Both the position numbers and the translations under genes were made by a program. DNA of 32,804 bases, from contig JAYZEG010000082.1 of NCBI GenBank assembly GCA_036337435.1, positions 1 through 32,804 on the forward strand, given 5' to 3'. The stretch comes from Myxococcota bacterium (GTDB lineage Bacteria > Myxococcota_A > Bradymonadia > UBA7976 > UBA1532). The notes under the pieces are model-generated. The model was not told the origin of the DNA, searched no databases, and saw nothing but the letters and a program-made list of their open reading frames with translations. Of the stretch, positions 26,017 through 31,889 are shown in pieces; positions within the stretch are counted from its first letter, which is position 1; each line of letters opens with the position of its first letter.

Positions 26017-29000
26017 CTATAGGCTGCATACATACGACTTTTCTTCATCACAAGCAGCATCGCTCCAATAGGCTTTGTTTTCGCCAAGACTAACGCAGTC
26101 TTGGTCGGCGGGAAGGCCATTGGGGTCAAACCCTGAAAAACTGAGGTTAAGATGGTCCGTTCTCAACCAGTGGCCATCAACCATTCGGTGTCCGATCCAA
26201 GCACCTGCCAGTTCATTTGAACGAACGGTTTCTGCGATCCACTGATTTTCTTCCACGTAGGTGACACTGGCCAGTCGTCCGCCAGCCTCTTCGCAGGCAG
26301 CGTTGGCTTGCTCTTGAGTTCGATGGCTTCCGCAAAATAAGAAATCACGGCTGACAAGGTCTGTTGCTCGGTACCGCTTTGTACCAGCTGGAAATCCAGC
26401 CCGACGCAAGCCCAGGTCCGTGCCCGCGAGATGTAGATGCGATTCCGACTCAAGGTCCAGTGTACTGCCAAACACCCTTGTTCCGAGAGGGAATCCGAGC
26501 CGACTGGCGACGCCGCTGGTTTGCACCTCGATATTTCGGCCATCGGGTGCCGTCAGCATGAGATGACGATCCGCCGTTAGGTTGGCATACACACCCGTAA
26601 AGTCAGAAACCGAGTTAATTAGACTTCGCAAATTATCCGACCCGTCAGCACGCAGCGCAGCGACGATGATTGGCTGTGAAAAGCCGATGCTTGCGAGGGC
26701 TGCCGCATTGCCATGAATTGTAAAGGCGTTGTCAGAGGTCAAAGTGAGTGGCGCACCATATACGCCATTGTAATGGTTGCGGCCTAATCCGGTGATTCGG
26801 CCGGTGGCGATATTTGTATGGCTCAAGGCGATATTTCGACCATCTTGCGCGGTAAGGACAAGGCGGCCCTCAACATCCAAAGACGCAGTCACCCCGGTCT
26901 CGGTGCTTGCGGCATTGATCAAGCTGCGTAAATTATCCGCACCGTCTGCACGCAGTCTCGGAATAATCGTTTCATCCTGAATGCCGATTTTATCGGGGGA
27001 ATTTCCTGATATGATGATGGTCTCGGCACTCTCCAATGATAACGCTCCGCCGTGGGTACGCAGGCCTTGGAACCCGAGCCCGAGACGAGTCGCGTTGCCA
27101 ATAATCCCGAGCTCAATGTTTCGACCATCATTCGCGGTCAAGACCACCCTATGGTCCGCGTCTAAAGCCGCCGTGACACCGGTTTTCTCTGTCACAGAAT
27201 TGATCAAGCTTCTCAGGTTGTCGCTGCCATCTGCTCGGAGGGGGAACGCGAAGGTGTTGTTCGTACCGATCTTCGCAACGGCGTTCCCCTCGAGCCGTAT
27301 GGATTCACTCGATTCGAGGACCAGGCGGCCCCCAACTGAATAGGTTCCGGGGCCTGGGGATAGTCCGAGACGGGTTGCATCTCCGAGCACCGTGATTTCA
27401 ATGTTTCGTCCATCTGCAGCTGTCAGAATCAATCGAGATGCCGGGCTGAGAGACGCGATGACACCCGTTTCATCCGTCAGTGAATTGATCACACTTCGGA
27501 GTGTATCCCGCCCATCAATGCGCAAGGCACTCTTGTAGATTTGCAGTCCGACGAAGCCGAGTTTAGCCATCGTGTTCGTAGGCGACCAAAGACGGATGCG
27601 GTTCGGGGACGTCAGGCTGATTGTGCCGCCGACAACCCGCGTCCCCGGGGTGGCCAATAGTCCAAGTCGAGTTGCAGCACCTTCGATCAATACATTGATA
27701 TTTCGTCCATCGATGGCGGTGAGAACCAAGCGTTGTTGTGCATTGAGTGATGCTTGGACACCGGTCTGAACGACTCGGGCATTGATAGCCTCGCGCAGTG
27801 TGCCTGTCGCATCTGCGTCTTGGACTTCAATATCTCGAATAACAACGCCATTGATATGGAGGGCATTATCATCATTCAGTGTGACTTGAACGAGATTCCC
27901 GGAACCAACGAAATAGCTCGGTTCCGCTCTTGCGGTGACCGTTGTAAAATCACTGGATGCATTGATGGCGGCCGCTTTGGCGATGGCAGAAGACGAACCA
28001 AATCTAATTGAGAGTGGGTCATCAGCAGCGATAGATGCCCGAATATTGACCCCATTTACGAGGAGGTCGCCTCGGTTCAACTCATTGCCCGGCCCCTGTG
28101 GAATATTTGTAATCCCATAGTCTGCTGCAAGGATGCTTGCCCGGCGTTCAACGGCATCTCCATTGTCACCACCTCCGTCGCCAGCGTCGTTGTCGAGAAC
28201 CTCAAATCCGGCAATAATCACGCCATTGATGGATACGTAATTGCTGCTGTCGAGGGCGACCTGGGCGATGTCGCTCACACCCGTCACCTGGCTCTGTTGG
28301 ACCCGTGCGGTGACCCGAGTGTGTTCGCTCGACGAATTAATCGCATTTGCTTTCGCGATCGCGGAGGTTGCAGGCCTGACCGTCGATAAAGGGTCATCAG
28401 CACCGACGGTGGCGCGAATGGGGACGCCGTTTATGACGAGGTCAAAAGCGGCCAGTGCTTCAGCTGCATTGCCCACCGAAATACTGTTGTTTGACTCCAG
28501 CCGCGCGATTCGCATCGCGTCTGCGGGGTCATCGCTTATGGGCCCAGGTCCGGCATCGTTGTCTTGTATTTGAATCCCGGCGATCATCTCTCCGTTGATC
28601 ATCAATAAATTGGTCGAATCGAGTTCAACGGCACTGATGTCGCTGGTTCCATAAAGCTTTGTTGGCATGACCCTAGCCGTGACGCCAGTGAACTCCGTTG
28701 ACGAATTAATGGCGTTCATCTTGGCGATAGCCGATGAGGCTTTATCTCGCGTCGAGGTGGCGTCGTCTGCATCAACCGTCGAGCGAATATCGACCCCATT
28801 GATGATGACATCCTGGTCCATCAATCGTTCCCCGTCGCCTTGCGCGATCGACCGGAAGGGAGATGGTACAAAGAGCGCACGGCGACGCGCATCCTCAGGA
28901 CGTTGGCTGACTGGGCCGGGTCCGCCATCTCGGTCTTCAACGCCAATGCCTGTGAACAAGACGCCATTGATGGTGACATAATGAGTCGAATCAAGAGTAC

Positions 29001-31710
29001 CCGCATTGATCGGGTCTCGATCGTGAATCACTGTCGCGTTGGCCGACGCCGTGACCCCCGTGAAAGGCGTACTGGCATTGATGGCACTGCTTTTGGCAAG
29101 GGCTGATAAGCCGCTATTGGTTGTGGAAAGCTGATCATCTCCTTCGACTGCGGGTCGAATGGCTACGCCATTAATGAAAACGGAATCGGGTCGGATCGGT
29201 GTCTGGGCGACTGCGTCACCCGTCATCTCTGCTCGCCGGATACTGTCCTCCGCTCGATCGCTTTGCGGACCCGCTGCGGCGTCGTCATCGAGTACCTGAA
29301 TTCCAGTGATCAGATTTGCGTTAATGGCGATGTAATTGGTGCTGTCGAGCAACACGTCGAGAATTGGATCGTCTGCAACGACGCGGGTTGGCGCTGGCGT
29401 CGCGCGAACCTGAGTTGACCCGAAAGCATCATTAATGGCGTTCGCTTTCGCGATGGCGGAGCCGGTGGCATTGTTGGTCGAGTAAAAATCGTCGGACTGT
29501 TGACTGGCTCTCACGTCGATTCCATCGATGACGAGGTCTGACTCCACAAGACCTTCCAGCAGCCTTTCATTGCCATTATTTAAAGGAAAGTCATCGGCCC
29601 GCACATGGACGCGTTTTTGGTAGCGTCGTCGTTGGACACAACGATCCGGACCCACAACCCCTTCCGGATGGGCAGGCTCTCGTGTCACGCCTGCCGGTGC
29701 CGTGTAAATACGACTTGGGTTTGTCCGTGCGATTCGGAACCCGATCCCATCATGGAACGCCGGTGCCTGAATTGCCCCCGGATTCGCCATAGACCGAAAA
29801 GCCGCTCGAATGTGCACCCGTGGGGTTTCGTAAGACCCACCGCGGATCACCCTTTGGGTTCCGAATCGGGCACCCACTGGGTTCAAAACGGTCCGACTGG
29901 TGAATGGTGCGTACACGTCCCAAACCCACTCAGATACGTTCCCGAGCATATCCGAGACCCCAAACGCATTCGGCGCGCCGACACTCGCGACCGGGTTTAG
30001 ACACACATCATCGACGCCGCCACACTCACCAGAGTCGCGGCGTGTATGGAAATTAGCGCAGTCGTTTATGTTGGCAAAAGCAGGTCCACCCATTTGGGCT
30101 GCGCCAACAAATAGACAGGTTCGCAGCCTCATATCTTGGTACAAAGCCGTTAAATCATCGCCGCCCACATTCGGATTGCCGACGCCAAGGGTATCTGTTG
30201 ACCCGCTGCGTGCGGCGTATTCCCATTCCGCCTCTGTCGGGAGTCGGTATCCAGCGCAATCATAGGGATGGCCTGACCCTGTGTTCACAGTCACGCTCGA
30301 ACAACTATAATCAGGAAAACCTTCTCGTTCTTCATTGCACTCGTTTAGCTGAAAGCACTCAGGGAGCCCTTCTTGTTGACTGAGGCGATTGGCATAGGCG
30401 AGGGCATTGTAGAAGTTAAGCCCCGCAACGGGGCATTGTTCGCAATCTAACTCGGGCTTTGGGCTGTAATTTCCTGGCCCGTACATGTCGTCCCACTGTG
30501 CTTTTGTGACTTCAGTTGCTTGTAAAAAGAACCCGTGGGTCAAGTAGACAGCGTGCCGGTTTTCGTCCGTGTGGCGTCCAGGCTCATTCGCTGGTGAACC
30601 AATGAAGAATGGCACCAGCTGCTCTTCATCATTTAGGGGTGGCGTGATTGACACAAAGCCATCAATGGGTGCGATTGGCCCGCATTGACTCGGCTCACCG
30701 ATACAGCCTCGATCTGGATCGAACTGACAGTTTGTGCACCCATCACCATCGATGTCATTGCCGTCGTCACACGCTTCGTCGGCGTCATCCAGTTGACCGT
30801 TACCGCAACGGGTTCCAATGGGACCATTTGCGCCCTGCTGGCCGACCAGAACGATCGCAGGTCCGTGCGGGCAAGTTAGCGTAAACGTGCCATCATCATT
30901 GGGATCGATTCGACAGCCAGCACCATTGAGACCATCGGCACCGTCTTGACCATCGGCACCGTCTTGACCATCGGCTCCAGGCTGTCCATCGCGCCCTTGT
31001 TGAATGGTCACAGGTGGGCTGCCCGGACAATTAATGGTCACCGATTGATCTGCGTTGGAAACCACAATGCATCCTGGGCCATTCTCGCCGTTACTAATCA
31101 CGACAGGCTCGCTGTCCGGACAATTTAGGGTTGCCACGCCGTTGTCATCGATCTCGATTCGGCAAGGCTCGCCAGCCTCTCCACTCGGCCCCCTTTCTCC
31201 TTGCATGCCGGGTGCGCCATCTATGCCGGCCGGTCCTTCGGGACCCGGCTCTCCTTGAGACCCTTGTTCGCCTTGAGGACCCGCCTCACCCCGAGACCCC
31301 GTGTCTCCTTGGGGCCCTTGTGGTCCCTCTTCACCCTGTGGGCCTGGCTCACCCTGCGGACCTTGCTCACCTTGCGGGCCTTGCTCACCCTGCGGGCCTT
31401 GTTGGCCAGGCAAGCCCTGCTCGCCTCGCGGTCCTCGCTCGCCTGCTTCGCCATCTCGTCCGTTACAGACAACGTCTTGGCGGTCCACTTCGTCGGCATC
31501 GAGCATGCCATCTCCGTTTGTATCGACGCCAACATCGAGAACGACGCCACCGTTGGGGCATTCGTCCAATGTTGCCGGTCTCGCTTCCTGAGCCAGTGCG
31601 ACGACATTGAGCGGGACATCCGCATCGGGTGCTTGGTCTGGACCATCTGTTTGCGTTTCACATCCAAGACTAGCGAGCAGAAGTATGGCGAGGCTGTAGC
31701 GAAGCATCAT
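26017..31710 (-). CDS. Giant surface lipoprotein: collagen-like stalk, Cys-rich repeats, FGE-sulfatase-fold domain, nested flagellin IN-motif repeats, C-type lectin domain
   Basis: ATG 31710 after GGGGGA; lipobox SLGC; CPNGG...[12 protein letters not shown] module; GXY tracts; CGNG...EACDDGN; FGE fold 29722-30657 ([33 protein letters not shown]); SAIAK..AIN...T.V.A x5 then LR..IN...TGV.A.L...LTA.DGRNI x5; CTLD (A..AC...GGRLASV...EN.WI...WIG...DC...WSD..C...YVC). Confidence 0.9.
26392..27807 (-). repeat. Five 'C-half' flagellin-like repeats (~85 aa each)
   Basis: Copies at 27553-27807, 27265-27516, 26983-27231, 26680-26946 and 26392-26646; consensus DG.D.LRSLIN.....TGV.A.L....RL.LTA.DGRNI......A.RLG......GG.L.L.S...I.I.G.....IG. 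Confidence 0.9.
27808..29538 (-). repeat. Five 'N-half' flagellin-like repeats (~87 aa plus linkers)
   Basis: Copies at 29278-29538, 28924-29187, 28552-28812, 28183-28443 and 27808-28068; consensus DL.INGV.IR.....DD..S......SAIAK..AIN.S..FT.VTA...LDS.N...ING..I.G..V.D.DA. Confidence 0.9.
30916..31461 (-). repeat. Collagen-like Gly-X-Y tracts (33 triplets at 31165-31461; 9 triplets at 30916-30996)
   Basis: Uninterrupted [12 protein letters not shown]...GEP; second tract [27 protein letters not shown] includes an 18-bp DNA tandem repeat. Confidence 0.95.
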
Positions 31711-31889
31711 GTTCCCCCGGATTAAGGTTCGATGGCGTAGACAATAGGACGATGTCCCCGTTGGAGCCAAGGCGTTTAATCCGTGTCCAAGGAATTTCAT
31801 GAGTTCAGCGAGAGTGGACAGTCATTTCAGATGGGAAAAGCAGCGTTGGAACGCATTGAAAACACCGCTTTTTCAGGTGCTTTCAGTCG

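Follow-up and report, generated by a model that had tools for sequence, protein, structure and literature searches.

A flagellin outer-domain cassette, probably nested in itself five levels deep, in a non-flagellar protein of a Myxococcota bacterium

The window analysed here is a stretch of 32,804 nucleotides from a Myxococcota bacterium (positions 1 to 32,804 of contig JAYZEG010000082.1, assembly GCA_036337435.1), the draft genome of which amounts to 4.38 Mb, is split into 95 contigs and has a completeness of 87%. The window carries on its minus strand a single open reading frame (ORF), at positions 26017-31800, which codes for a protein of 1927 amino acids (aa), here called P0001. Inside this ORF lies a repeat block, at 26392-29538, in which an earlier note made from the sequence alone had recognized five N-terminal halves (A) of a flagellin-like module, followed by five C-terminal halves (B). 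We consider it quite probable that this block is a five-level nested stalk, generated by the recursive domain-in-domain insertion of one flagellin outer-domain cassette, and extending over aa 745-1812 of the protein.

All the features of P0001 described below are read on the minus strand. Its true start is likely to be the methionine pair at aa 31-32, which precedes a hydrophobic stretch ending in ..LGC; this putative lipoprotein signal peptide (aa 31-47, 31660-31710) was read from the translation, and similar leaders, ending in ..LLGC and ..FMGC, open the related proteins P0002 and P0003, so that we refer to P0001 as a putative lipoprotein. A DUF7151 domain follows (aa 79-112, 31465-31566; Pfam score of 39 bits, cut-off 27.2), and after it a collagen-like G-X-Y region with interspersed cysteine-containing modules, seen both in Pfam and in the translation (aa ~113-300, 30901-31464; PF01391, 67 bits in three stretches, cut-off 27.2), a weak Pfam match to a cysteine-rich DUF4215/myxo repeat (~aa 331-359), and a domain similar to the sulfatase-modifying formylglycine-generating enzyme (FGE; FGE-sulfatase, PF03781, aa 400-692, 29725-30603; 103.1 bits, cut-off 23.3). 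In FGE the catalytic cysteine pair comes after an RGGS motif, and no cysteine was found after this motif when the translation of P0001 was read by eye. The repeat block comes next, and a C-type lectin domain (aa 1827-1926, 26023-26322; PF00059, 45.6 bits, cut-off 22.6) closes the protein.

The block itself is matched by Flagellin_IN (PF07196) in five stretches, with 90.9 bits for a cut-off of 22.7 and the best stretch at aa 1314-1362. Flagellin_N (PF00669) and Flagellin_C (PF00700) are absent among the seven Pfam families that match P0001 at E<=1, and the NCBIfam flagellin models match it by their central positions only (e.g. 198-374 of 475), with a score of 158 against a cut-off of 531. P0001 is, then, not a flagellin: its central region is homologous to the outer-domain region of flagellins, but the D0/D1 regions are lacking. 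The genes adjoining P0001 code for a sodium:solute symporter and an alpha-amylase-family protein, and consequently its genomic context is not flagellar.

Motif anchors, and hidden Markov models (HMMs) derived from the copies themselves, were used to set the limits of the repeat units. Five A units (aa 751-1330) precede five B units (aa 1331-1810), in the order AAAAABBBBB, and all ten score 120-140 bits with the unit HMMs. The outermost N-terminal half, A1 (aa 751-840, 29281-29550; 129 bits), is followed by linker 1 (aa 841-869, 29194-29280), A2 (aa 870-958, 28927-29193; 130 bits), linker 2 (aa 959-992, 28825-28926), A3 (aa 993-1082, 28555-28824; 140 bits), linker 3 (aa 1083-1115, 28456-28554, placed by alignment), A4 (aa 1116-1205, 28186-28455; 134 bits), linker 4 (aa 1206-1240, 28081-28185) and the innermost N-terminal half, A5 (aa 1241-1330, 27811-28080). 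A5 runs directly, without any linker, into the innermost C-terminal half, B1 (aa 1331-1425, 27526-27810; recognized by the HMM and in the structural model described below), and this is followed by B2 (aa 1426-1520, 27241-27525; 121 bits), B3 (aa 1521-1615, 26956-27240; 120 bits), B4 (aa 1616-1715, 26656-26955; 120 bits) and the outermost C-terminal half, B5 (aa 1716-1810, 26371-26655; 123 bits). The four outer A copies, A1-A4, share one stop point, D-x-D-A/G, after which a linker of 29-35 aa with the common pattern GPGP..S..P.DA.RRA begins, and the four outer B copies, B2-B5, all open with LRxDGxDxLRS.IN. The outer A stops and the outer B starts match the point at which A5 is joined to B1, that is, the host module is interrupted at this loop. 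The equal counts, the direct A5-B1 junction, the shared stop point and the shared opening had all been described in the earlier note, and our unit limits bear them out.

Protein identity among the copies of P0001 is 37-51% for A and 38-52% for B, and neighbouring copies tend to be the most alike (A3-A4 49%, A4-A5 51%, B2-B3 52%). At the DNA level identity is left only in short patches of 60-87%, which indicates that the repeats are old and not an artefact of assembly. Furthermore, an independently assembled metagenome contig, L061, carries the same 5+5 order in a protein that is 83% identical to P0001, with 0 gaps over 1642 aa. When the two genes were compared, the ratio of non-synonymous to synonymous divergence (dN/dS) was 0.11 for the block and 0.05-0.14 for every unit and for three of the four linkers (0.09 for linker 2); in linker 3 the synonymous differences were saturated, and hence no ratio is given. 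These values denote purifying selection, and show that all ten units are maintained by selection.

The origin of the module can be found in the flagellins of the same genome. Eight ORFs of flagellin size (472-509 aa; loci L002-L007, the ORF of L002 being of 481 aa), five of them clustered at ~40-53 kb of contig C28, two on C30 and one on C62, contain each exactly one A and directly after it one B, and are 39-47% identical to A5-B1 of P0001 over the whole module. The linker behind the outer A copies could be aligned to the stretch that precedes A in flagellins, a homology found for linker 1 in its C-terminal part, and the tail of each B to the stretch that comes after B; consequently, the repeated unit is a complete flagellin outer-domain cassette, including its connectors. 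These flagellins have in common with P0001 the whole module and its leader and tail segments, and differ from it in having a single module each and D0/D1 helices, and in having no FGE, lectin or collagen parts. Among solved structures, a sequence search of the PDB matched Campylobacter jejuni FlaA (6x80; E 1e-8 in the single-sequence search, 8e-19 in the profile search), two Helicobacter pylori flagellins and one more flagellin chain, 6b5b. Myxococcota are better known for gliding.

The fold of the cassette was predicted with AlphaFold2 (AF2) on a two-level construct, A4-linker-A5-B1-B2 (aa 1113-1520, 408 aa), from an alignment of 55 rows, with a depth of 54 in the A5-B1 part and of 5-8 in A4 and B2. 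The model had a mean predicted local distance difference test (pLDDT) of 91.4 and a predicted template modelling score (pTM) of 0.82, with a pLDDT of 90-97 in the outer A4 and of 91-95 in the outer B2, and A4-A5-B1-B2 is accordingly predicted by the model to be one rigid body. When this model was compared with the PDB by VIA-align, the best matches were H. pylori FlaA (9ygu, Z 14.4) and FlaB (9yh1, Z 14.3), with 183-188 residues aligned over model residues 106-318, and C. jejuni FlaA (6x80, Z 12.5) and the D2/D3 domains of Pseudomonas aeruginosa PAO1 FliC (8sug/8erm, Z 10.6 and 9.7) were also found; the domain boundaries of C. jejuni FlaA were taken from our own alignments. As the flagellin structures align from model residue 106-107, linker 4 is from ~aa 1218 structurally part of the central module.

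Two further groups of matches divide the cassette into subdomains. About 20 structures of FliD, hook and filament proteins align on model residues ~180-281 as one contiguous domain; the FliD matches to this inner subdomain have Z values of 6.2-9.1, the best being H. pylori FliD (6iwy; Z 9.1, root-mean-square deviation 1.9, 78 residues aligned). The Sphingomonas surface flagellin (3k8v/2zbi; Z 7.8-8.0, 95-100 residues aligned) has a contiguous domain of 103 residues that is spread over model residues 107-315, and from this mapping it follows that the outer subdomain of the cassette is discontinuous. The junction between A and B lies between model residues 218 and 219, in the loop that separates strand 212-214 from helix 222-228, the IN helix. 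In the model the break between A and B would thus fall inside one compact inner subdomain, contiguous in the FliD and flagellin structures, and with the junction in such a loop every outer A would end in a partial subdomain and every outer B would start with the remainder.

The outermost halves, A1 (aa 745-850) and B5 (aa 1716-1812), are separated by 850 residues in the chain, and were submitted to complex prediction as separate chains with an alignment of 11 rows each. The complex reached an interface score (ipSAE) of 0.78, and the best of three controls 0.00; 116 of 157 solved complexes and 2 of 215 mismatched pairs attain the mark of 0.78, a calibration that is only rough for this case, since our own alignments were used. 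Contact agreement among the runs was at least 93%, the pLDDT of the partners was at least 79 (79-83), and the interface comprised 262-272 residue pairs, with strand pairing between residues 60-65 of A1 and 31-36 of B5, and between 81-83 of A1 and 42-45 of B5. With unrelated control partners the pLDDT was 35-36 for A1 and 38 for B5. These predictions suggest that A1 and B5 form one intertwined unit when they are together, and that each of them is disordered alone.

The earlier note had expected that homologues would always have equal numbers of A and B. An exhaustive profile-free search yielded 10 representatives at E<=1e-30, and a length-restricted search listed 76 proteins. All four relatives with a complete block are balanced, namely P0001 and L061 with 5+5, and P0002, a complete protein with FGE and lectin domains, and the orthologue in genome G027 with 4+4. 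The three lineages of the nested protein are 44-47% identical to each other; only about one change in copy number, from 4 to 5, separates them, and so the evidence from balanced counts rests on few events. Six proteins (P0003, P0078, P0080, P0081, P0082 and P0084) were left out of this tally as fragments. P0003, labelled Myxococcota by NCBI, reads 4+3, is named partial and ends inside a B; P0078 reads 4+5, with its A1 aligned to A2 of P0001 and a C-terminal end that looks frameshifted.

A nest of smaller size was found in P0096, an unrelated metagenome protein of 818 aa, without flagellin or FGE domains, in which the order is AABB (2+2). The insertion point of its inner cassette is displaced by ~14 residues, to the far side of the IN helix, and the broken motif is taken up again precisely at the TGV strand; these motif positions suggest that nesting took place in P0096 independently and at a different loop. 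No Pfam family was matched by its N- and C-terminal regions. In an order-wide search of 31 genomes, the multi-module protein was present only in the genome of the window and in G027; with this query, G025 (81% complete) and G026 (100% complete), which belong to the same genus, gave only matches of flagellin level. A scan of genome contigs with the block as query gave 84 pattern matches and no relative, and the same scan with an alignment of the B-B junction gave three loci, all of them ordinary one-module flagellins. The scan of metagenomes gave two loci, L061 with its 5+5 block and L062, which has only weak B-like matches in flagellar proteins.

We propose the following organization for the block. 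The cassette would be made of two subdomains, an outer discontinuous one formed by the start of A and the end of B, and an inner one, similar to FliD D2, formed by the end of A and the start of B. A whole copy of the cassette, with its short leader and tail, would have been placed in the loop of the enclosing cassette that leads from the last strand of A to the IN helix of B, and this insertion step would have been repeated four times. The chain would then climb from A1 to A5, turn at the sole intact junction, A5-B1, and descend from B1 to B5, with A1 paired to B5, A2 to B4, A3 to B3 and A4 to B2. Since A5 and B1 are fused and the ends of a cassette lie together as in flagellin, A4 and B2 would meet at the foot of the central module, and so on outward. 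The outcome would be a two-stranded stalk of five modules, or ten subdomains, having both chain ends at its base, where the FGE-like domain, on the N side, and the C-type lectin domain, on the C side, would be adjacent.

This nested stalk, whose full five levels would reach a length of a few tens of nm, would be carried on the collagen-like stalk of a lipid-anchored, presumably trimeric surface protein; exposure at the cell surface would be expected, and the domain content suggests a role as a surface spacer or in adhesion. Because the cassette is nested in itself, growth would need matched changes at two distant sites of the gene. One level could be gained if an entire cassette entered the loop, or through two compensating unequal crossovers together with selection against orphan halves. 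Two segments bordering the block are conserved between P0001 and P0002: aa 693-750 (29551-29724), just on the N side of A1, with the pattern ..RRYxK.V.V.., and aa 1811-1826 (26323-26370), just on the C side of B5, with the pattern ..KRY..T.LVSRDFL.C. They may make up the foot by which the stalk is attached to the FGE-like and lectin domains.

The earlier note had anticipated that the A and B copies would be congruent in mirror order. The divergence between A copies was correlated with that between B copies, and the mirror order was ranked among all pairing orders. The 5+5 proteins follow this expectation, with a mirror correlation of 0.86 in P0001 (mirror order rank 4 of 120, parallel order rank 51 of 120) and of 0.75 in L061 (ranks 8 and 73 of 120). 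In maximum likelihood (ML) trees of four of the proteins and the eight flagellins, only three sets of copies were grouped by position: the first A copies (support 91/90), the last B copies (92/86) and, between P0001 and P0078, the innermost A (81/88). The identity matrices between proteins gave no clean one-to-one orthology of the copies.

Several results weigh against the nested organization. The 4+4 proteins fail the mirror order, with a mirror correlation of 0.16 in both P0002 (mirror rank 8 of 24, parallel rank 2 of 24) and the G027 orthologue (mirror rank 11 of 24, parallel rank 2 of 24), so that the outcome is mixed and the predicted mirror congruence is not established, and the ML trees were mostly unresolved, with 3 of 22 inner branches starred for A and 1 of 22 for B. 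With respect to the counts, P0079 (968 aa) reads AAAABBB, that is 4+3, with a tail of 31 aa and no lectin domain; its record may be incomplete, and we keep it as a possible counterexample to the balance seen in the complete relatives. Nesting is, in addition, not the sole way in which the module multiplies, since tandem arrangements also occur: among 149 newly listed representatives, all having a unit hit, the order was AB in 98, ABAB in 24 and ABA in 8, and P0083 (1218 aa), a plain tandem ABABABAB with some partial units, is the beads-on-a-string counterpart of the nested family.

The remaining points of this kind concern the fold. The pairing of A4 with B2 is derived from pTM, pLDDT and homology, and not from contacts seen in the two-level model. 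The good score of A1 with B5 may reflect the memory that the prediction model has of solved flagellin outer domains (6x80, 9ygu, 9yh1), and it would indicate complementarity between A and B rather than a choice of B5 by A1 over the other B copies. Finally, when the whole block was modelled with AF2 (aa 745-1812, 1068 aa, alignment of 12 rows), the pLDDT was 48.3 and the pTM 0.30, the first parts of the A units reaching locally a pLDDT of 70-84, and this model neither shows nor excludes a five-level stalk. The claim of a mirror-order fold, in which each outer A would pair with its outer B counterpart, stands, consequently, as a prediction that is supported by the A1-B5 complex, by the two-level construct, by the position of the break inside a subdomain and by the equal counts of the complete homologues.

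Three other explanations of the block have to be weighed. The halves could complement each other between molecules, the A units of one chain folding with the B units of a neighbouring chain, within or between trimers, to give a domain-swapped fibre or lattice. A and B are indeed predicted to associate as separate chains, the collagen-like region should bring chains together, and the full-length intramolecular model did not converge. However, the linker-free A5-B1 must pair in one chain, which places A4 and B2 of that same chain side by side, the high pTM of the two-level construct was obtained with a single chain, and the flagellin precedent is intramolecular (PMC11532411). We regard complementation between chains as unlikely.

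Slightly less probable still would be two independent tandem arrays, in which A and B were autonomous domains, each amplified five times and arranged as beads on a string, and in which the equal counts were coincidental or weakly selected. Tandem duplication predicts the similarity between neighbouring copies, and the better rank of the parallel order in the 4+4 proteins, the 4+3 order of P0079 and the local pLDDT of the first parts of the A units in an otherwise poor model would all agree with it. Against this, the boundary between A and B falls within a subdomain that is contiguous in the solved structures of FliD and flagellin, A1 and B5 go from a pLDDT of 35-38 alone to 79-83 together, with their 262-272 contacts, a single rigid body is predicted for the two-level construct, and the counts are balanced in four of four relatives with a complete block. 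An artefact of assembly or annotation, by which the repeats would be mis-assembled or the ORF would not be a real gene, hardly deserves credence and was rejected, for although repeats are a known hazard for assemblers and this is an incomplete draft genome, the copies share little DNA identity, the independent L061 assembly has the same order with a low dN/dS over the block, and two further lineages have the same architecture.

The five-level nested stalk may be compared with systems already described, of which the closest is a one-level self-insertion in the flagellin of Geovibrio thiophilus. According to PMC11532411, D5 of this flagellin is a duplicate of D4 inserted in a D4 loop, and D4 resembles FliD D2. 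The likeness is that of a FliD-D2-related outer domain which has been duplicated, the copy being placed in a loop of the original; the difference, as far as the description of D4/D5 allows the comparison, is that G. thiophilus has one level and a single domain in a true flagellin, whereas P0001 would have four successive levels of a two-subdomain cassette in a non-flagellar protein. The out-and-back path proposed for the chain is also that of Salmonella FliC, in which, as outlined in PMC8306008, the N-terminal halves of D0-D1-D2-D3 carry the chain outward and their C-terminal halves bring it back, only the outermost domain being contiguous; the nested domains of FliC are, however, different folds, and in P0001 the same cassette would be nested in itself.

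With D2/D3 of the H. pylori, C. jejuni and P. aeruginosa flagellins, P0001 has in common the predicted fold of the module (Z 9.7-14.4, 162-188 residues aligned), sequence homology and the Flagellin_IN motif. In flagellins a single copy of the module is set between the D1 helices of the filament subunit, the order ABAB being found in some of them, whereas P0001, a putative lipoprotein that also has collagen, FGE-like and lectin domains, would hold it as a five-deep nest. In the literature on insertion or duplication of flagellin outer domains, on Flagellin_IN and on nested or discontinuous domains, we found no account of repeated self-nesting or of this protein family.

Domain insertion is usually one level deep, and repeat proteins usually grow head-to-tail. 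Here, a natural family seemingly has the same two-subdomain cassette nested four to five deep, and flagellin outer domains are reused outside the flagellum; if the five-level fold is real, no module nested more deeply in itself is known to us. With more reserve than for the nested stalk itself, we incline to the idea that recursive self-insertion is a heritable and length-tunable way to build a two-stranded stalk, in which each balanced gain of A and B adds a module (4+4 versus 5+5) and both chain ends, with the FGE-like and lectin domains, are kept together at the base, and by which flagellin surface domains would have been exapted for a surface organelle that is not flagellar. If the nested fold is confirmed, the family would provide a model for the folding of discontinuous domains whose halves can be separated by as many as 850 residues, an example of balanced copy number under selection, and a design principle for rigid hairpin spacers that have both ends together.

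Some other proteins found in the searches carry the module in different contexts. P0004 and P0085 (2254-2256 aa) and P0005 (1735 aa) are giant flagellins with Flagellin_N, in which an A and a truncated B lie near residues 185-333 and a second partial A and a B ~1,700 residues later; this pattern may correspond to a very large insertion inside the module. Two genomes of the sister family f2, G028 and G029, have reading frames of 1290-2286 aa with single-module matches (e.g. on contigs G028:C9 and G029:C15), which may be giant flagellins or other module-bearing proteins. P0006 (1087 aa) combines DUF4215 and an FGE-sulfatase domain with a weak match to Flagellin_N and the order ABAB; it is another fusion of FGE-like and flagellin parts, in this case not nested.

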